From: Balanoglossus misakiensis
Lineage: Eukaryota > Animalia > Hemichordata
Direction of reading: 5' to 3'
Length of the DNA: 64,000 nt
Assembly: GCA_040954595.2 (NCBI GenBank)
Contig: CM082577.2
Location: forward strand, 15,879,903-15,943,902
The notes under the pieces are model-generated. The model saw only the letters and a list, made by a program, of their open reading frames with translations. It made no database searches and was not told the origin of the DNA. Shown in pieces: positions 34,875 through 59,276 of this stretch; within the stretch, counting starts at the first letter, position 1; each line of letters begins with the position of its first letter. Both the position numbers and the translations under genes were made by a program.

Positions 34875-35749
34875 TACTGTTAAATGCCCATTGCTGTTGA
34901 AACATTTTCCACATACTTTGCATTCATATGGTCTCTCTTGGGTATGAACTCTCAAATGCACTGTTAAACGCCCATTGCTGCTGAAACATTTTCCACATAC
35001 TTTGCATTCATATGGTCTTTCTTGGGTATGGACTCTCAAGTGTGCTGTTAAGTCCCCATTTTGGGTGAAACATGTTCTGCATTCATATGGTCTCTCTTGG
35101 GTATGGACTCTCAAATGCACTGTTAAACGCCCATTGCTGCTGAAACATTTTCCACATACTTTGCATTCATATGGTCTTTCGTGGGTATCGACTCTCAAGT
35201 GTGCTGTTAAGTCCCCATTTTGGGTGAAACATGTTCTGCATTCATATGGTCTCTCTTGGGTATGGACTCTCAAATGCACTGTTAAACGCCCATTGCTGCT
35301 GAAACATTTTCCACATACTTTGCATTCATATGGTCTTTCGTGGGTATCGACTCTCAAGTGTGCTGTTAAATGCCCATTACCGTTGAAACATTTACCACAT
35401 ACTTTGCATTCATGTGGTCTTTCTTTGGGATGGACTCTCAAGTGTGCTGTTAAATTCCCATTTTGGGTGACACATTTTCCACATGTTCTGAATTCATATG
35501 GTCTTTCTTGGGTATGGACTCTCAAATGCACTGTTAAATGTCCATTGCTGTTGAAAAATTTTCCACATACTTTGCATTCACATAGTTTTTCGTGGGTATC
35601 GACTCTCAAGTGTGCTGTTAAATGCCCATTGCCGTTGAAACATTTTCCACATACTTTGCATTCATGTGGTCTTTCTTGGGGATGGACTTTCAAATGTGCT
35701 GTTAAATTCCCATTTTTGGTGAAACATTTTCCATATGTTCTGCATTCAT
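34875..35749 (-). repeat. C2H2 zinc-finger-coding tandem array (84/75-bp units), left segment
   Basis: ORF 34869..35693: repeats of [26 protein letters not shown]. Confidence 0.92.
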
Positions 35750-36054
35750 CACGGCTGTTAATATCGTACGTAAGGCGAATTCTAGTTGGAGTAAAGAAAT
35801 AACAATGTCAAACGCACGAGATCTCGTGTATAGGGAGAACTCGCAGCGGGATTTCGATCACATGTTTTTTGAGAATTGCCTCCGATCGAACGAAGCAAGT
35901 TCTGGGCGGGGTAACTACCTAATATGGACTTAAACCTCACTTCCTCCTCACTTTCTTAAGAGCAAGCAAACACAAAACACAGATGTTGGGTCAACATTGG
36001 GGGGTAAACTTTAATACTAAACTACTGGACCTTAGTCGTTACATACTACGAAAT

Positions 36055-36085
<31 letters not shown>

Positions 36086-36640
36086 CATACATAAAGCAGG
36101 CCTGTGAAAGAGGCAGAACTTACAAAATTGCCAGTAAAAAGGCAGGCAGCAAATGCTTCAAATACAAATGCACAGTGATAATGTATGAAATGTAAAGGAA
36201 AGCAGTAAATATTACATTGCAGCAACAACAAAAATAAATAAAAAAAATAAGAGGTGGGAGGGTGGGGCAAAGAGCTGAGTGGGGTGCAACACTCACACTG
36301 GCTGTTCTCGCTCGAATGAGCTACGGGACTTTCCCTCCTCCTGAGGATGAGTAACTAAGGCAGTGATTGGTTAAACAAAGAGGGAAAAGGCGATTGGTGA
36401 AAATGCAACCTCGTCCTCAGCCGATTTAAACCTCGCTCAATGAGAGCTATACCTTAAACCTCACTTCCTCCTCACTTTCTTAAGAGCAAGCAAACACAAA
36501 ACACAGATGTTGGGTCAACATTGGGGGGTAAACTTTAATACTAAACTACTGGACCTTAGTCCTTACATACTACGAAATCCCCAACACCCAACAGTAGTGG
36601 TAGTCGAAGTAGGAAAATAGGTGGGTTGAAAATGTACACA

Positions 36641-36988
36641 CTAAACAGAGTGTGCATCAGGCAGAAATTGTGCACGAGACGGCTGGCGCAGGCAATTGAT
36701 GCAATCAAGAATTCGTCGAAGGAAACTTCTACCTCCATGAATAACCTGACAAGCCCAATTTAATTTCCCAGCAAGGGATTGCAATTGGCGGCGGGACGCA
36801 CGCTTCTTAGAGCGAAATGACAGCAGCAATGTGTAAAGCTCTTTTAGCTTTGTCGGCGGCAGCGCTAAGGTGAAGTTACAAGTGTCGATGAGTATGCCCA
36901 AAAACACCAGTTTTTGAGTGGGACCTTCCACCTTACTCCAGGCAATGGAAAACCCCAATTTCCGTAACAATGCAATAAGGGTGTTCAA
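36641..36988 (-). pseudogene. DIRS/Ngaro reverse transcriptase C-terminal fragment
   Basis: LGFSIAWSKVEGPTQKLVFLGILIDT...LQSLAGKLNWACQVIHGGRSFLRR. Confidence 0.85.
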
Positions 36989-37740
36989 CGCAGTCTGACA
37001 TTAGCATGTAAAGAGCTAGGTACATAATCCACAACGTCAAAGTAGGTCAAACCTTGCATTGTTTTAGGTTTTAAGTAAACCAAAGGGTCCAAATCCATTC
37101 GGTGTGGCTGCTGCAGTGGAGATGAAGGCATAGTACTAGAGTTATTGTTCAATGTCCCTTCATTTAAATTAAGCGCCTGGAGAAGAGAGTCCAAACCAAT
37201 GCTGGAGTGGTTGTCCGATCGGACCGGAGGTTGGGTGCCTTCCGTCTTCATCGATGATCCCGTCGCCCCGCTGGTGGTACTCGGAGAACAGGAGGCCGCC
37301 ATGTTGTTGAGTTGTTTATCGAACGGCGCCCTCTGTTGGTCAGCATGTCCGTGATTACTTGCCTCGCTGGGGGTACGCTGGCCAGCCAAAAGTTTCAGGG
37401 CAGCTTCCAGATGACGAAGTTGAGCGAGAGGCGAAATCTTCAGTAACAATAAGTCTTCGTAGTGTAAAAGCTTCATCGAAGACATGTTAGTAAACCCGTT
37501 GATGGCCAAGGAGTGAAGTGTCAATGATGTGATGCCATTCTGCTCGGCCCATAGTTGCACTTCAACATCAGGTGTCTGCACTTCAGCGTCCGGTGTCGGC
37601 ACTTCAGCGTCCGGTGTCGGCACCGAGCTGATGATCGCTGGGTCAACTTGCTCCATCTTACCACAGATGGAGAACCAACGGGAAAGAGGAAAATCAGAAA
37701 TTCTGGCGTCCGGTGAAGGCGGGAAGAAAACTTCGAGCAA
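36985..37740 (-). pseudogene. Ngaro ORF1 (gag-like) N-terminal fragment
   Basis: 251-aa ORF directly after repeat A1 and upstream of the RT fragment; call is mainly positional. Confidence 0.6.
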
Positions 37741-40077
37741 AGAGCTGAGTGGGGCGCAACACTCACACTGGCTGTTCCCGCTCGAATGAGCTACGGGACT
37801 TTTCCCTTCTCCTGAGGATGAGTAACTAAGGCAGTGATTGGTTAAACAAAGAGGGAAAAGGCGATTGGTGAAAATGCAACCTCGTCCTCAGCCGATTTAA
37901 ACCTCGCTCAATGAGAGCTATACCATAATCGTGACATTTGCTAAGTATAATTGGTTTCCGAAGATGTCCGAACAACCTCACTGATATTTTGCTGGCTTCC
38001 TGATGTACTGCAATCGCCTCAAAGTGTGATTTTGTGGTTGCGTTAGTGGCGATTTTTTTCACGGTAGCCGTGCGATCTGTAGGTGAGCATGGTTATGATG
38101 TGTATTTTTTTGAGCTTGATTTAAAATTAAATCAATTTTCACAACGTAAATAACAAATTTCTGGGGTAGTTTGCTGTATGTACGATCGTTTTGTAGTGTT
38201 GGAGTGGCTTCGGAATTTAGCGTGTGGCTACGTAATTACACTTTCTGTAGAGTTCGTGATTGTGATTGACGTAAATTGACTCAATGTCACCATGGTCACG
38301 GCGTCTATACGCTACCTGTTACCGGTGTCTGTGGCGCCAAAATCAAAATACAGATCATCTTGAAGCAAAATATGGCCACCAAGAAAGATTTGGATGCACA
38401 TTTGGGTCTAATCTCAACACTGTGTAGAATTTGTGGTACAAAAATCGTCAGTACTTCGTACGCGTGTAAGAGCTTCCAAACCCAATTGCGCGATGCGTTC
38501 AATGTTGACGTAAACAACGACGAATCGACAGTTCATCCAAATAGTTTCTGCAAGAATTGCAAGCGGACAGTCGACTACTGTTTACATGTAACACAGGCCA
38601 GTACAGCTAGCTATAGCCCGAGAACGAAGGTGACATTGTGGAAAAAACATCCGCGAAACGGTGAGTGTGATGTTTGCCTTCGGTCTCGACCCGGAAGGAA
38701 ACCAAAACAGACGAAACGAGGACGTGAAAAAGTTAAATATCGTGTCTACTCCTAATGACTCTGATGATAGGAAGTTGGGTTCAGGAACTCAAAGTCAAAC
38801 TGACACACCCGTTGATATAGATTTAGTCAATGTTGTAAAGACCAAAGCAGGCAAGAGGTTTAGGTGTTCACTGGGACTGTCTCCACAACGATTCATTCAC
38901 AGCACATATATTGGCCAAGAACTCGATTGCCCTATTTGCAAAGAAATTGTGGACGAGCCTGTCCAAATTCTGTGTGCTAACCCCCACACATTTTGTTCCC
39001 CCTGCTTGGCAGAGTGGTTCAAAGTTTCCCCAACATGTCCTGTCTGTCGGGTTACAATAGACAGCAATTTAGTTGCTTTGATTCCAGTCATGTTGGGAAA
39101 TATCCTAAGTTCACTAACAATACACTGTGATTATAGTAATTGGGGATGTACTAGAGAACTGCCATTGAGGGATCTGAAAGGCCATTTTGAAAGCTGCCCC
39201 TACACATCAATTGCCCATGATCATCATTATGCGTCAGCCAAGCTCAACAGCAATTACATGTAAATTGCAATGACACTGACATCGATGTGAATGGGTCGGT
39301 ACACCAGCCAGAGACCGTGAAAACAACCAGTACTATATCCCCACAAGAAGCACTTGACACCATTGCTAACTGTTCTGAAAAAATCGACAAGATGGCTGGT
39401 TTCGATACAGTGGCAACCAAAATAATCAAACTGAAACTGGAACAAACCCCTGGCTCTAGAAAGGGAGAGGCGATAACATTTAAAACTAGATCAAAGGTAA
39501 GGAAAAAACAGTGTTGATTTGAAATTAATGTCATAATTATTATGACTGTAGTAGGAATGAATAAGTAGTTATAGTGTTTTGTAATATTGTCACAATGTTC
39601 AATTGATGACATATCTGATATGTTTAAGCATGACATATGTATTTGTGTGTAATTTTTCCTAGTAAGGCCATTTACCTGCATTACATATGTCCCCATCATG
39701 TTAATAAAATATTTGCGTGTGTCATTTTTCTCCCATAAGCCTATTCACCTGATGTATGTCCCAAAGGCAGTGAAGGATTCCACCAGAGTATCAACTCGTA
39801 CACAGGCACATCGAGCAACCATTGTAGAGAAGACAAGAGAAAGTGCGTCAGGTGTGTCAGGTGACAGCAAAGCGGTAGCACAACAGGTTAGGCGGGAGCT
39901 GGGCAGATTTGGGAAGACTGAACTACATTCCCTTGGTCTTTTGCCTAATGTTCCTCCTGGAGCTGGTCTAATGCTAAAGACCAGTTTGTCACTACCATGG
40001 AATAAGTTGAGGGCACTGAGGAGGTAAGGATTAAGTGGGTGTGTATGCCAGCGTTTTTATAGCATATTTTACTAGTA

Positions 40078-40264
40078 CAGTCAAACCTGTCAATAGTGGC
40101 CAGTCAAGGGACTGTCCAAAACTAGCCTTTATAGACGTAGACAGGTGGCGCTTATAGACAGGTCAGTTAATGTACAGTAACTTGCACCGGGACTGTAGCA
40201 AGGTGGCAGCTATAGAAAAGTTCCACTATAAAGAGGTGGCCTGCCACTTACACAGATTTGACTA
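40078..40264. mobile_element. Tc1/mariner-type MITE in a Chapaev intron
   Basis: TA|CAGTCAAACCTGT...ACAGATTTGACTA|TA. Confidence 0.75.
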
Positions 40265-41964
40265 TATATTGCAAATGTGCTAATTTCATGCATGGTGTCT
40301 GTGTCTGCCTCTGTGTGTGCTGTTGGGGGTTTAAAATAGATGTACTGAGTTTTTCAGTACCAGTACAGTCAGCTTTATAGCTTATTGTCAGTCTATTCAA
40401 TTTGACACAAAATACCAAAATCTAGTAAAATTTTAGAAAAACAATATCAGAATATTTGCTTTTATTTTCAACATGCACTGGTGTGTGCAAACTTGTCTGA
40501 CAATTCACCAGCCCTGCTTTGTCAACTGTAGGTTTAAATATGTGCATTTTAAATATTTGTGGTAGTTTAATTGCAGTTCTGTATACCAAAAATTGATTTT
40601 AAAAAAATATAGAGTTGGATTGAATTTACCATTTGAACAACAAACTGGTCAAATGTTTAGAAGATAGATGTGTATATTGTAATATTTTGCTGAGAGACAA
40701 CAAAGTGATAAACAATTGCAATGTGTCATGGAATGGGTAAGTACACATGCATTTCAACATAATCTATTTTTTTCCTCAGATGGTTGCGAAATTGGAACAT
40801 ACATGTCCAAGGAGAGACAAGGGACAGGGAAATTGCTGAAACGCTATCCCTGCCCCTTTCTGCGGAAAGACTTCCCTTCACATTTAAAGTGAGGGGAACA
40901 GATGGCAAACACTGTACAGAAATCAGACTTGCACCATTGGTAGTAATAGAGAATGTGAAGGATGCAATCATTACTAAGCTTGAGTGTTTGGAAAGGTAAC
41001 ATTGAGAATAATCAACAAATTTGGATTTTACTTTCAGGTATCCCTAAAATGTTCTCGTGAATGCTGGTAGGGAGTATAATTTGGAGTTAACATTCAACTT
41101 CATTGACGTAAAAATGAAAGACATCATATAATGTCAAAAATAAATAGTATGTTTTGTTTTGACCTTACTTTAAACATTTTCAATTGAATTAAATTAGACT
41201 AATGGTACGTACCTTTCACTTCACATTTTACACAATATTTTGTACACATGGTCTTTTCATTCTCATTCTTCAACATTTTTTACTACCGTGTTTGTAATGC
41301 ATTTATTATATTGATATTATTATATCAATCTACTTTATATTTCAGAGAAAATAAACTTACTTGGCAGGAAAGCACTATTCCCTGTGATGAAGTCTGGTGT
41401 AAAGTTGGGGGCGATAAGGGAGGTGGCAGCATGAAATCTGTCTTTCAGATTTGTAATGTGGCCAACCTTAATTCAATTGAAAACACAGTGGTGTGGAATA
41501 TTTTTGCTGCACCGGATACAAGGCATAACCTTGAGATTGCCTACAAGGTTAATTTAGACCAAATCAACTCATTAGAGAGTTGCACATGGAAGTGAGTACA
41601 TGATATACATGTAAATGATGCAAATATTTCAATTATGCATTAAAATATCTAGTCATAGTTTTCTCTTCTGCAGCATTACCCATGGTAGAGGATTGTACAT
41701 ACCTGTTCAGCTCTATTCAAACTGATGCACACCTTTTCTTACAATGGCTGGTTTTCTGACACTCAGTACATGTAGCTGTAACTTTTATTTGTTTCAGATA
41801 CTTTTAGCTTGACTCTTTCAACTAACACTGTGTTGTGTGTTCCCTATACCATGTTGAAACACACAATATCGATTCTGTCAGCACAACCAGTGTATGTATA
41901 ACAAACACTGTTATCGCTTACAATTGAAATCAATTCAATTGTCAACAATTAAAAATTAGTTTTC

Positions 41965-42986
41965 TCGTTGATGACCCTGTCTGGTTTTGCAATTCTCCCG
42001 TTGGGGTCAATAAATTGGGTGATATGATGAAAGAGATTTCGAAGGAGGCAGCACTGTCCCGTGTTTATACAAATCACTGTCTGAGAGCGACGGCATGCAC
42101 AGTTTTAGACTCGGCGGGAATAGAGACGCGACACATTATGTATGTATCCTGTCATAAAAACGAGGCAAGTGTAAGGTCATACACAAATAAACTTACCACT
42201 GAACAAAGTCGAAACCTATCAGGTATTCTTTCCAGAAGTGTTGGGTACACTGACGTACAGACAGCATCGCCTGATGTTGTCCATGGTGCGTGTGATCGCC
42301 AACAACAAACTGCGTGTAATTCTTCCAGTGTCGAGTCAAACTCTGATGCGTGTCGTTCTCGGACCATTTCAAGCAATATGACGAATCAGACTTCAGGTTT
42401 GTTTCAAAACTGTACATTTAACAATCGTGTTAACATTCAAATTGTAAACAAAAACGACTGAATTCCATTTGGAGCGGAGCGAAACATTCTCTCGATCACC
42501 GTGCATATTGCAACGTCTGTGTGTCGGCCTCCGTTGAGGTCAATGTTTGCAAATCTTTTGTATTGTTATGTAAATATTTTCTATTTTTAGCTTTCATAGT
42601 TGTGTTTTAGCTTACGTAGTTGTGTTGACATGCTGTATTTCTGTATTGGAATTAAACGTTTCCTCTTTTTTGAAAACAAATTTCTTTGTGTTGCGTGAAA
42701 TATGTAAATCACGGGTACCAGGAAATTATGAACATAAACAATATTCATGTTACGGGGCCCTCTAACAACGCAAAACTCATAGTCAAAGAAAATGCCTTTT
42801 TAAAATGTTTTATGCAAAGTTTCAATATACTGGCATAATATAATAGCAATAAAACACCCCAGCCATGGTATACCACTCGATTTTGACCAGTTCAACTCCA
42901 TATACGCACTCGCTATCGCTCGTGCGTATATGTCGTGAACTGGTCAAAATCTCGTGGTATACCATGGCTGGGGGTGTTTTATTGCT
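41965..42986 (+). mobile_element. Crypton remnant: tyrosine recombinase (DUF3504-like) C-terminus plus terminal palindrome
   Basis: PVGVNKLGDMMKEIS...YTNHCLRAT...IMYVSCHKNEASVRSY (ORF 42015..42461) and a 142-bp palindrome at 42845-42986. Confidence 0.8.
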
Positions 42987-45778
42987 TAAATAATTCATGG
43001 GTAATTTGTCTTTAGGCAGATTTTTCTGTCTTTGGTGTACTATTACCAAGGAGGAAGCAAAGCGTGAACCAGGAGACAGACCAGAAATAAAACAACGGTC
43101 CCTTGAGCAACTGAAAGCTGACAACCAGGCCTATGTAGCAGCAGGGAGTGATAAGAAGACTACGTTGATGTTCAACAACTGTATCAACAAGCCTTTGTTT
43201 GATATTCCTCTAAACAGGGTGTGCAGTTTAATCAATAATTGTCATTTTGACTTGGTTGTTAAACAGTTTTATTTGCTCCTAGCATTACCAGTTGTCACTT
43301 TACCATATGATATGCACATGTGATGGAGACATGCAGGATCAAATTGCAACTAAAGAAGAAGTCTTTTTTAGCTTGGGAAGTTAGCTTAGTGGGTTTGAGT
43401 CCTGGCTTTGTGAATGCTACTTCAGGTCTTGGGTTTGTCTCAAAAAAATCTAAAATATGTAAAACATAACTGTATACTGATGATCTTCTCTATAAATAAT
43501 TACATTTATTGTTGAGGGAATACTAAGTAGCCAGACAGTATATTCCAAATAGGCCTGTTAAAGTTTACTTAACTCAGTATTTTTTTTATTCACAGTTACA
43601 TTGATTTTGTTTTGCTTCCAGGTTGCAATTCCAGCACTGCATATAAGCCTTGGCTTATATAAGAAAAAAATGACGACATTGATGAACCTGTCTTAAAACC
43701 AGCACGTTTTGATGCATATGTGTCATTGCTTCGTGAGGCCCTTGTCTTGGAAAGGGAGGCCGGCTCTCAAGAAGCCAGGGCTGCTGCCATGGAGAATAAC
43801 ATTCAGAGACAACTTCTTGATGATGATAGTGATGACGACAGCGATGATGATTCCCTTTCATTAGCTGCTATTTCAAAAGCATCAGATGTGTAGGAAAAGC
43901 TAATTGCAAGTGCCAAGGCCAAGGTTAGGGTTAGAGTACTTTGCAGTGTTTGTTTCTCATGCTAGGTTTTGATCATGTCAATGATTTTTTTTCTATTTGC
44001 TGTAATAGAAACAGAATAATATAATGTTTCATATGACACCAGAAAAAAAGAAAACCAAATTTTATGTGTACTCATAACAGGAAAATTGTTGCCATAGTTA
44101 TTTCAAGTGCTGAGGTATGAGAAACAAACATTTATTTTGAACATAATCCTAGTCTTTCACCTCATTTTCACCTGTCTTTTGGATAACCATGCTACTCTTG
44201 ATTTCATACTTCAGCTTTGCAATAGTTTCACTGACAGTTTTGTTTCCACACAGAGAGAGGATGCAGCAAGCCTGAAAGGAAACTTACCAAGGGATGCTGG
44301 ATATACAGTCAGGAAACTTGATAGGAGTCTAAATAAAATTCATGTGTACAGACAGGCTTACCATGGAAAGTCTTTCATTGGAAACCATGTCAACACATGC
44401 TGCAAGGTTTCTATAATACTAGTATATTGTATTGCTTCCCAAATATTCAAGTTTTAAATCTAGTGAAGAAATTGTTTTACTTCAGAGGATAAGAGTAACT
44501 GCAAAATAAGGCATGATTTGTGGTTATTGACCCCAGTTCATTTTTTTATGTAGATAACAATGGCATGCTGCTTTCTTAAAATTTTAAGTTTCCCCAAGGC
44601 AGTAAGTTATCTGCTGCTTGTATGCTTGCCTGTTGGTATTTTCATTTCATACAGTTCAAATCCTAGAAATGAAAAGGTTAAATTAATATTTAGTTTTACT
44701 CTGCTTTTGTTGTAGATATTCACAAATACATTTTCAATTTGTTTCTGACATTTTCTTATTCATGCATTCATGCAAACACGTACACCTATTAAACATAAGA
44801 TCTTTTCCATCTCACATTCAGGACAAGAATATCAACATCATTGTTGATAGTGTGGTACAGTGTACTGAGGAGATGACACCAGAACTGATTACTGATGCAG
44901 AGGCCATAAGGGACAAATTCAAACCATTACTGACACTGTTTGCATCATGCCACAACACATATTCTCTTTCAAGGAGGTTGACCCAAGATGAAATAACTGA
45001 GCTTGGTGACTATTCTTATCAAGATAATCACATTTGTTCAATTATTCATAATGTATTTGAACTAACCGTGTTCTATGGTGTGTTTTTTCTATTTGGCAGT
45101 TTGTAGATACTTGAATTATACCAGAGAAGCCACGGGCAGATTTAGAAGCCTGGTTGCTGCATGCTGTAAATTTATTCAATGTTGAAGTTTGCATAAAATA
45201 AGTATTATTTTCTTGTTTGGATAATCAACGATAATTTATTTTGTATTTGTACTTTTTCTTGTGTTCACCTTTTTTGTTCTCTCTCTGAGTGTATAATTTT
45301 TATATTTATTGTATTTGATTTTACTTTGATGTTTACATTTATATGTATGCTCATGTTGTAGTTGTAACTCTTTACATTTGGATTCCTTAGTGTTTAGTGG
45401 ATAAAGTGATAAACCTCTTGCAATTTCTTAAATTACCACTCACTAAGGATTTTATATTTTCTCTTTTTCTCCTAGGTATCAACATACGAGGGCTCATGGA
45501 ATATTACAGATCAAATTTCCCTAAAGAATCTGTGTTTCCAAAGATGCACCTTCTTGAATGTCATGTTGTCAGTCAAATTGAAATGACAAATATGGGGCTG
45601 GGTTTTCTAGGTGAGCAAGGTATTGAGGTCATTCACCATCACTTCAACACAGCAGAGAGGAGTTATGCCTCAATGCCAAATGACGTAGACAGGTTGAAGT
45701 GCATGGTGAAAGATCATCATATCAGGAATCACCCAGGAAACCCTAAGCCACCTACAAGGAAAAGGGCTCGTAAAGATA

Positions 45779-47165
45779 CCCTTACGAAAAAATAAGGCTT
45801 CCGGCGCACAGTTGTGGTAAACTTACCGCAACTTTGCGGCACATATACAGCGACTGTTTGCGGCGCACGCGCGGCTAATGCATATTTTCGCATGCAAATA
45901 AGCTGTTGCGGCGCACAGTTGCGGTAAACATACCGCAACTTTGTGGCACATATGCGGCACGTATGCCAAAACGGGTTTGCGGCGTATATGCCGCAAATTC
46001 TGCCCTCTTGCAACTTTGCGGCACATATACCGCAACTGTTTGCGGCGCACGCGCGGCTAATGCATATTTTCGCATGCAAATGAGCTGTTGCGGCGCACAG
46101 TTGAGGTAAACATACCGCAACTTTGTGGCACATATGCGGCACGTATGCCAAAACAGGGGTTTGCGGCGTATATGCCGCAATTTATGCCAGCTTGCTAATA
46201 ATTAATCCCTACTGTGGCCCCTTCCTAGCTACAATGCAGCCACCCGTAAAAAGAATTGCCAATCTATCCATTCTGTTCTTAAGTTTGCAATGACACATAC
46301 TTCCCAGTACATGTATCTTGGTTCAGCAAATCTTAATTCTCATGTGAATTTGGTGTGTCATATTTATACAAAGTCATGTACTTCCCATAAGGAGAGTAAT
46401 CCAAAGTATATTCAACAGGCATGGACCAAACATTTCTTTGTGAAATTGTGACCCTCATTGTTTATTTCAACAACAGGAATTATTTTATAGCTATCTCAAG
46501 TGATTCAACTACCACAGAACATTTAGAAACTCACCCAGCTGTATACATGTCATTGCAATGTTCTTGTCTCAAGTGTTCTCTTACTGTACAAGATTATGAC
46601 ATCATCCTCAGGAAATTGTTCAAACTACTGACCTCTGGTAATGCACAAATATCGCTACCACAGTATTCAAGTGAAGCAGCTTCCAGCTGTATGGATTTGT
46701 GACATCAAATTCATGGTTTTTGATGGGCACAGAGATCCCAGTGTAACCTTACACAATCAAAATGTCCGCCTAAATGAAATCAGCCTCATTCTCGTTTCTG
46801 CACATGTCACCAAAAAGTAATTTTAACCAGCTGCAAATTCAAATTCTGTTTACTTGAACGTTCTGGCATGTATACCGCAACCGTGCCGCAACAGACTCCA
46901 CTGATCACCAGATAATATCAAACTCCCTGTTTACTTTACTTTTGCGGTATATGCGCCACAAAAGGCGCCACTGATCACCAGTAGTACAAGACACTCTGTG
47001 TTTACTTAAATGTTGTGGCACACGTGCCGCAAAAGGCTTGACTGATCGCCAGAAGTGTGCCGGTACTGGCGATCATCGGCGATTAGTCGCCACAAAGTTG
47101 CGGTCAGAAATTTGCGTGCCGCAACTTCGCCGCATGTTTGCCGCAAGAAAACAACTTCGTAAGGG
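45779..47165. mobile_element. Non-autonomous EnSpm/CACTA-like element inserted just before the Chapaev stop codon
   Basis: TA|CCCTTACGAA...TTCGTAAGGG|TA (2-bp TSD), dense subterminal GCCGCA/TGCGGC motifs and an internal ~180-bp duplication. Confidence 0.75.
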
Positions 47166-47651
47166 TAGCAGCTAAATGTTTAAGATGAAGTGATATGCAT
47201 GCACTTTGCTAAAGAAAAGAATAAATGGTTAAAAAAGTACAAGTTTTGTCAGTAATCATTTCTTGTGATGTTTGGATGTAGTTCATAGAGGTGTGAGTGT
47301 ATGGATCGGAATACACATATATACCGGTATATATTTATATAAGTGTGTGCGTGTGTGCCCATGTGCCAAACAAGAGCAATGATTTTTTAAGGTCGTGGCC
47401 AAAAAAATTAATTAAAAATATAATTTAATTGAAAAAATCTATGAATTTAAAAGTGAAATAATATAAATTTTCAAACTACATACATTTTTTTTTTAAACTT
47501 GTACTTTTAAAATGTGTATTGTATTAAATTTGTGACCACAGCACAGATCAGGATTGCCATATGAATATCGCCCTCTATCGATGTAATTTGGTAAGGTTTG
47601 TGAATTTGTATTTCTTTACTCCAACTAGAATTCAGGCTGAATACGGCTGTG

Positions 47652-54768
<7,117 letters not shown>

Positions 54769-58622: not shown

Positions 58623-59276
58623 TGTTACGTAGGAGAAGTTTGCTGTTGTTTTGTGACCAGGTGTGTTTTCGCTTACTTTCGTAATTTGAATTTTGCGTGA
58701 CCAGGTGTGGTGCATTCATTTTTTTTCCCTATAATAAAAGCCCGCACGTTGTGTTGCGGCGTAGCTACTAATTTGGACTTGCCCGTGTGTTCTGTTCTGT
58801 TCCTCGCCGGCTTGGAAGCTGTGCTGTATTTCATGCTGCCCTGGTCTGGAAACCGCGCCCAGAAGTTGTGCTACCTCATGGGGGAATTCGTCTGAAAGCT
58901 GTGCCGTCTACCGGGGAATTGTGCCAGAACGCTACTCGGACTGAACGTCACTGTTGGGACTGCCGTGGTGCTGGTCGCGTTCGTCGTGCTCTACAGGACC
59001 GTGGACTTTATTCTTTCATTTCCCACACCTGGTCACATTTAAGGTAGTTATTTATTTTTGTGTGTTTTCTTCCCAATGTACAATATTTTTATATTTTTAC
59101 CAATGTTTAGTTGTAGTAATTAAAAGTTTCCATAAGCAAGGAAATAACGTGTATTGTGCCTATTGTTGACCGTCTTTGTTGCGTGCTGCGCTGGTTGGTT
59201 CACCAAAGCAAGCCATTCAGTAACTCTATTTGCTCACTGCCCTGTTTCGGAACTGAATGGCCAGCGTGCCGTAACA
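58623..59276 (+). mobile_element. Solo LTR (654 bp)
   Basis: TGTTACG...CGTAACA termini, TSD CCCT on both sides, TATAATAAAA near 58730 and ATTAAA near 59120. Confidence 0.85.

Follow-up and report, generated by a model that had tools for sequence, protein, structure and literature searches.

Bipartite ends of unequal spacing in a decayed Chapaev transposon of Balanoglossus misakiensis and in distant families

We analysed a stretch of 64,000 nucleotides from the hemichordate Balanoglossus misakiensis (assembly GCA_040954595.2, contig CM082577.2, positions 15,879,903 to 15,943,902 of the forward strand), called the window below and numbered from its first letter. At 35750-47651 it carries a decayed copy of a Chapaev transposon flanked by the 4-bp duplication TCAT. 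Among the target-site duplication lengths tried (2-7 bp), 4 bp alone matched, at 35746-35749 and 47652-47655. Excision of the element in silico restored a normal unit of the C2H2 zinc-finger array that hosts it. The features of the two ends are as follows (X1 and X2 are sequencing runs described below):

35746-35749, plus strand: left target-site duplication TCAT, 4 bp being the sole length matching on both sides
35750-35760, plus strand: left tip, of the CAC-N-G-S-Y-GT type common to related Chapaev families
35761-35776, plus strand: long spacer, the inner motif starting 27 bp inside the tip; X1 contig record 1 is gapless and unchanged across 35750-35844
35777-35801, plus strand: left inner 25-bp block, whose first 10 bp are the counterpart of the cross-family motif (consensus GCCACTTAGT)
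47609-47633, minus strand: right inner 25-bp block, the motif starting 18 bp inside the tip
47634-47640, minus strand: short spacer, gapless and unchanged in X1 record 1 and X2 record 3
47641-47651, minus strand: right tip
47652-47655, plus strand: right target-site duplication TCAT

Read from 35750, the left end consists of CACGGCTGT, 18 bp and the 25-bp block at 35777-35801. The right end, read as the reverse complement from 47651, consists of CACAGCCGT, 9 bp and the block at 47609-47633, identical to the left one at 25/25 positions. The block starts 27 bp in from the left tip and 18 bp in from the right tip. Counted as in recombination signal sequences (RSS), with a 7-bp heptamer, the spacers measure 20 and 11 bp. 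The best shift between the two ends was +9, a value equalled by 0/1000 shuffles. With up to 6 mismatches allowed, the block did not occur again in the 64-kb window, and the pattern CAC[AG]GC[CT]GT was confined there to the two tips of the element. The tips (35750-35758 and 47643-47651) are nearly reverse complements of each other, so that the tip motif itself is almost palindromic.

The class of the element was examined against published descriptions, cited here from the parts of each source that were available. Chapaev transposons have CAC...GTG termini and 3-4 bp duplications, the duplication being a 3-bp TWA in Chapaev3 (PMC4079192), and the features of RING-bearing members have been described (PMC4411706, PMC4079192, PMC12730594, bioRxiv 10.64898/2026.01.24.700457). 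Like these, the element has CAC...GTG ends, a 4-bp duplication within that range, an N-terminal Chapa zinc finger followed by a RING, and a DDE core with C(2)C and H(4)H motifs (H(3-4)H in the class). Its 5-bp flanks differ, unlike the 5-bp duplications of Transib/RAGL. On these sequence features it is a RING-type Chapaev cut-and-paste transposon, present as a decayed copy. The descriptions of RING-bearing Chapaev, in their available parts, give only invariant termini and duplications, with no bipartite end, inner motif, one-turn difference or side swap.

To get insight into the generality of this spacing, we collected relatives of the transposase. The first catalytic exon retrieved 672 protein clusters, the best four named from Ptychodera flava. 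The last exon gave no longer homologs in a word-index search, and no relatives were found in viral contigs. An alignment of 44 sequences then retrieved 78 related loci (76 from metagenomes, 2 from a genome collection), two of which, L077 and L078, are Chapaev transposase fragments on contigs filed under bacterial metagenome-assembled genomes and are likely eukaryotic contamination. Tips were called blind to the interior, with a pattern on the first 10 bases placed 150-1300 bp outside the gene and refined after inspection of loci; they were found in 16/27 left and 10/26 right flanks. The 29 tip candidates, second candidates being kept, came down to 26 ends after removal of L011, a duplicate 99.8% identical to L010 and excluded from all counts.

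Between families, identity inside these 26 ends was highest at shift 0 (z 11.9), with a second peak at shift 10 (z 8.4) and raised values at 9 and 8. A motif search with free offsets returned GCCACTTAGT at offset 18 in 8/26 ends and at offset 28 in 6/26, compared to at most 7/26 on two offsets in 40 shuffled controls run with fewer starts. When the motif was built from other loci only, the best of 40 offsets in the window ends was 27 on the left and 18 on the right. In a leave-one-family-out analysis, 15/26 ends had the motif at 18 or 27-29, against 5/72 decoy tips from gene bodies; training offsets derived from the all-ends motif, so that some leakage remains in this comparison. When the offsets were taken solely from the window (18±1, 27±1), 15/26 ends again agreed, where 3.9 were expected (p 6e-7). 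In sets picked by eye, identity was 0.27 in short and 0.35 in long spacers, and 0.64 and 0.52, respectively, in the motif. From one family to another, spacer length is held and spacer sequence is near random. The inner motif, to which the first 10 bp of the block correspond, is likely to be a binding site of the transposase.

The two ends of single elements could be compared in six distinct cases, L010 and L011 being one element with two different right flanks. The L008 pair, whose left tip required a relaxed pattern, showed a shift of +10 (0/1000 shuffles). The opposite shift, -10, was obtained in L003 (p 0.14) and L010 (p 0.06), neither significant alone. No unambiguous equal-ended pair occurred among the six elements; for L039 and L053, both left-long, the search for a right tip gave none that was convincing. 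We placed end types on a quick, unrooted tree of 35 transposases, which includes only unnamed or uncharacterised homologs and where the end labels come from 23 loci selected because an end could be called, the labels of 8 being weak ones given by eye. Most right-long loci fell in one clade, clade A (SH-aLRT 86). Left-long ends occurred in three further lineages, one with the window and P0002/P0152, one with L008 and one with L039/L053/L078. Within clade A, pairs of ends from the same side peaked at shift 0 (z 6.8; 5.0 at 8) and pairs from opposite sides at 10 (z 6.9). In comparisons of clade A with the remaining lineages the relation was reversed, with same-side pairs peaking at 10 (z 8.2) and opposite-side pairs at 0 (z 9.9); these pairs are non-independent, and the split was noticed after labelling. 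The 10-bp peak persisted between major clades, whose transposases are far apart (z 5.2). The one-turn offset (18 versus 27-29 bp) is found again in distant families, and the clades differ in which side is the long one.

The transposase gene makes up most of the ~7.3-kb family layout. In the window copy it is broken by nested insertions and frameshifts. Its parts, with exon limits inferred from GT-AG borders and homology, are:

35929-37923: nested insertion carrying split direct repeats; a weak reverse-transcriptase-like frame lies at 36641-37000 on the minus strand (PF06817, E 0.037 only); contig joint 35928 to 37924
38372-39496, plus strand: exon 1, with Chapa/NZD-like zinc finger, RING and zinc finger; frameshifts at about 38726 and 39244
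39740-40023, plus strand: exon 2, with a helical segment at the position of the RAG1 nonamer-binding domain (NBD) and the start of the next domain
40099-40717: nested insertion within an intronic repeat; contig joint 40098 to 40718
40780-40995, plus strand: exon 3
41346-41591, plus strand: exon 4, with the first catalytic Asp in GGDKGGGS; DUF1280 (PF06918), 672 homolog clusters
41950-42988: foreign segment with a tyrosine-recombinase frame (PF00589, E 8.3e-7); contig joint 41949 to 42989 with 387 other letters
42989-45006, plus strand: middle exons, with the C(2)C motif FFCLWC near 43020, ALHISLG near 43630 and FIGNHV near 44380; one exon at 44822-45006
45477-45776, plus strand: last exon, with the H(4)H motif MHLLECH and the catalytic Glu in GEQGIE
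45777-47165: nested element flanked by TA, with inverted ends of 10 bp, lying within the last codons of the transposase; contig joint 45776 to 47166

A Pfam scan of 14 of the 47 listed reading frames matched PF12560 (RAG1 N-terminal, Chapa domain; E 1.3e-14), the RING PF13639 (E 6.3e-9) and DUF1280 PF06918 (E 7.6e-11), and the translations contain GGDKGGGS, FFCLWC, MHLLECH and GEQGIE. Among these 14 frames there was no RAG1-core match at E<=0.1 and no RAG2-like frame, no dedicated RAG2 profile search having been made. The second catalytic Asp is absent from the window copy, where 387 letters are replaced, and its exon likely lies in the 387 letters displaced by 41950-42988.

Family copies were found in runs X1 and X2, which are one sample and may be the assembly's own source; run X3 held almost no sequence of the element. 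The X1/X2 contigs skip 35929-37923, 40099-40717 and 45777-47165 and carry 387 other letters instead of 41950-42988. They also have extra letters compared to the window, 5 at 38726, 10 at 39244 and more at 43664, where 62 letters are missing from the middle exons of the window copy. Since these contigs are without the insertions and frameshifts of the window, the window copy is a decayed one and the family form measures ~7.3 kb by our own arithmetic. One X1 contig begins exactly at 35750 and runs gapless and unchanged as far as 35844. The right end is also gapless in the contigs of X1 and X2, where a single change lies just inside the block. Both spacers are unchanged in the main contigs of the two runs, and a second right-end flank in X2 marks a second insertion site. 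Depth in X1 was 216-257 on the element against 85 on a private 620-bp insertion, depth not being equal to copy number and contigs dropping rare variants. A 20-bp piece of the block had no exact match in metagenome contigs. Because the main contigs keep both spacers and other families show the same geometry, the spacing asymmetry is, as read from these data, family-wide and not a private indel.

A separate contig in each run carries 31 bp of the right end (window 47605-47635) exactly, next to another outer spacer and tip, the X2 version diverging from that of X1 at the tip. On account of equal depth it was taken as the contig joining 44409 to 47605, and we infer that it is the right end of a sister family.

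What the initial annotation had proposed was borne out in part. The Chapaev identity agrees with the 4-bp duplication, the Chapa and RING domains and the DUF1280 core. The unequal layout (18 versus 9 bp) and the 25/25 identity of the inner block are exact. A difference of roughly one helical turn was recovered as +9 in the window and as 18 versus 27-29 bp in distant families. Copies with equal or variable spacers, which would have pointed to a private indel, did not appear in these data: the X1/X2 spacers are unchanged and the offset recurs in families. As a conserved unit, the block holds in part, being identical at both ends of the element but conserved across families only over its first 10 bp.

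We next compared the enzyme with solved structures. A profile of 44 homologs aligned to mouse RAG1 99-489 (E 9.6e-12), with exon 2 against RAG1 389-489 and a GG.P motif placed, at low posterior, opposite GGRPR at the start of the RAG1 NBD. A structure model was made of the homolog P0042, not of the window's own protein (predicted local distance difference test, pLDDT, 83). In Foldseek its best match was RAG1 (E 1e-15), with BbRAGL at 6e-11 and HzTransib at 8e-6. Superposed on the RAG1 core (VIA), it gave Z 25.1 and a root-mean-square deviation (rmsd) of 4.1 over 459 residues at 12-14% sequence identity. Against NBD-bearing chains the alignment runs on collinearly (model 312 / RAG1 391, rmsd ~10). 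The NBD-like exon of the window itself was predicted as helices (pLDDT 87); searched alone with Foldseek, this segment returned nothing at E<=0.001 (E 4.6). The transposase is accordingly modelled with a predicted RAG1-like core fold and a predicted helical segment at the position of the RAG1 NBD.

The ends resemble those used in V(D)J recombination in part. RSS nonamers start at 19 and 30 (7+12, 7+23; PMC1131882). The element likewise has a CAC tip and a second motif one turn further in on one partner (18/27-28 versus 19/30), and its predicted core fold recalls that of RAG1, with a predicted helical segment at the NBD position. Unlike RSS and RAG1, it has an inner motif that is not A-rich, tips matching the heptamer CACAGTG, by hand, at 4/7 positions on the left and 5/7 on the right, no RAG2-like frame found, and a 4-bp duplication. 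The RSS-like termini suggested initially are retained for their two spacer classes, about one helical turn apart and one per end, and not for the heptamer or the nonamer. The same annotation called the element non-Transib, which overstates the distance: PMC4411706, in the part available, places Chapaev as a clade of the Transib superfamily.

Asymmetric ends have been published for some Transib families, e.g. Transib5 and Transib2_AG (PMC1131882), and for the P. flava RAGL-A, with a 10-bp end asymmetry (PMC10462144). The element shares with them a spacer difference of ~10-11 bp between transposon ends. It differs in that they have RSS-like heptamers and nonamers and 5-bp duplications. In addition, the 5' end is the short one in five Transib families, whereas in the Chapaev studied here the side varies by clade. 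Among Chapaev3 Merrow elements (PMC4079192 Fig. S6), counted by eye, the consensus ends show a difference of 10 bp in tuna and 9 bp in dragonfly; unlike the element, Merrow has the 3-bp TWA duplication and a T-rich inner part. The main text of PMC4079192 has no occurrence of 'asymmetr'. No published Chapaev asymmetry was found in the available parts of the literature, which also covered PMC3014272, bioRxiv 10.64898/2026.08.26.747230 and 10.1101/100735; Repbase Reports 2007/2008, Repbase entries, Panchin and Moroz 2008, Yuan and Wessler 2011 and bioRxiv supplements may hold one.

Taken together, this is a transposon of a known kind, with a real and family-wide end design and a putative, plausible pairing rule. 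The rule would be that the RAG1-like transposase binds a short end jointly with a long one, in preference to two like ends, a reading to which we give an even chance. It is favoured because several distant relatives share the one-turn offset, some with the sides swapped. Both ends of the element carry a CAC tip followed by an inner motif, at a distance of 18 bp on one side and 27 bp on the other. The catalytic cores of two protomers would cut at the CAC tips while their paired NBD-like segments grip the inner motifs. A difference of ~10 bp would keep both motifs on the same face of the DNA, and a tilted NBD-like dimer might fit a short and a long end better than two like ends, without RAG2. 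In RAG, it is the NBD dimer that enforces the 12/23 rule (PMC10462144).

More tentatively, and with somewhat less confidence than the pairing itself, a rule of the 12/23 type enforced by an NBD-like dimer without RAG2 may predate the split between Chapaev and Transib/RAG. Chapaev would have kept it with its own inner motif, the long end swapping at least once, and the asymmetry of V(D)J recombination would be an ancient property of the clade's single-protein transposases. The origin of the 12/23 asymmetry is debated between a 'Transib seed' and RAGL-A (PMC8355894, PMC10462144). If true, the presence of this geometry in Chapaev, which is more distantly related, has no RAG2 and uses another inner motif, would mean that the design is older or arose twice. 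Chapaev could then serve as a simple one-protein system for questions on asymmetry and pairing, the natural left/right swap being a built-in control.

A number of observations weigh against the common offset and the pairing rule. No tip was found in 27/53 flanks examined, and 11/26 ends miss the predicted offsets. These include two second candidates, the left ends of the subclade L027, L044 and L005, and, with 18 ranking second, the right end of L008 and the left end of L051. The window's own version of the inner motif scores just -0.3 bits, the motif GCCACTTAGT is unlike the A-rich RSS nonamer, and the z-values obtained from shuffles ignore kinship. Among paired elements, the shifts of L003 and L010 are singly not significant, L005 shows no clear shift, and L051 has its best shift at 0 (p 0.285), with -11 second; duplications match in 3/7 paired rows (window, L003 and L005, 4 bp each). 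In the sister end of X1/X2 the distance between a CAC and the block is 16 bp, which becomes 18 bp if a mutated first base is assumed. Finally, the NBD-like segment alone compared to the RAG1 NBD (3gnb) reaches Z 3.6 in the same register, rank 8/48,161, tied with unrelated chains. As a side observation, the left ends L027:216, L044:232, L041:284 and L005:285 form one subclade with a divergent inner motif and no clean 18/28 fit.

Other published systems bear on the reading that best rivals the pairing rule. The inner motif could be a real binding site that needs the right helical face (18 or 28 bp), like pairs being equally good and the asymmetry kept for another reason such as end roles, bending or limiting activity. 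The Merrow consensus ends of two lampreys, counted by eye, differ by 0 and 1 bp, respectively, and so are apparently symmetric (PMC4079192 Fig. S6), and lamprey Merrow copies exceed 249 (PMC4079192). Mouse RAG1 alone has no 12/23 preference and needs RAG2 for it (PMC8355894), and the NBD-like domain of amphioxus RAGL is auxiliary (PMC7204232). These points count against an unlike-pair preference, and all sequence statistics obtained here are compatible with its absence too. On the other side, the six distinct paired elements hold not one unambiguous equal pair, and the swap of the long side between clades was accompanied by shortening of the opposite side, which a pair requirement would lead one to expect. 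We regard this alternative as a possible explanation that falls well short of probable.

An unequal spacing could also be functionless, passed down from an ancestral Chapaev one end of which had gained 10 bp by insertion. In line with such descent, the 78 loci are kin to each other and most of the ends come from one large clade; yet length is held in spacers whose sequence is near random, a 10-bp peak remains in comparisons of major clades with transposases far apart, and the long side swaps. We find this explanation unlikely.

It is very improbable that the element belongs to RAGL/Transib, where asymmetry of this kind has been described before. The closest solved fold is that of RAG1, and the nearest named proteins come from P. 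flava, whose RAGL-A has the 10-bp asymmetry. Against this, the duplication is of 4 and not 5 bp, the core is DUF1280 without a RAG1-core match, the modelled homolog has the low identity to RAG1 given above, a RAG2-like frame was not found in the scan described, and the tips and inner motif are unlike RSS. The last explanation, in which the 9-bp difference is a private indel or an assembly artefact, could draw on the decay of the copy (four nested or replaced segments plus frameshifts) and on the single sample behind X1/X2, but is largely refuted and barely credible, since contigs without the window's insertions and frameshifts have both spacers and other families the same geometry.

Several minor observations concern the surroundings. 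A tip-like site at 58967 (minus strand), scoring 6.5 bits at offset 18, was rejected as chance, with no partner end or transposase nearby; it makes evident the risk of false positives in motif scoring. The 2-kb insertion at 35929-37923 is 'DIRS-like', presumably a deleted DIRS-type retroelement. The segment 41950-42988 takes the place of 387 letters in the transposase gene instead of interrupting them, and contains a very high-depth hairpin repeat (42857-42973). The nested element at 45777-47165 is non-autonomous, with many internal palindromic repeats. Finally, the C2H2 zinc-finger tandem array that hosts the transposon (34920-54683, minus-strand coding) consists of 84-bp units with 79 unit matches; it is very long, has higher-order repeats and includes some frameshifted units.

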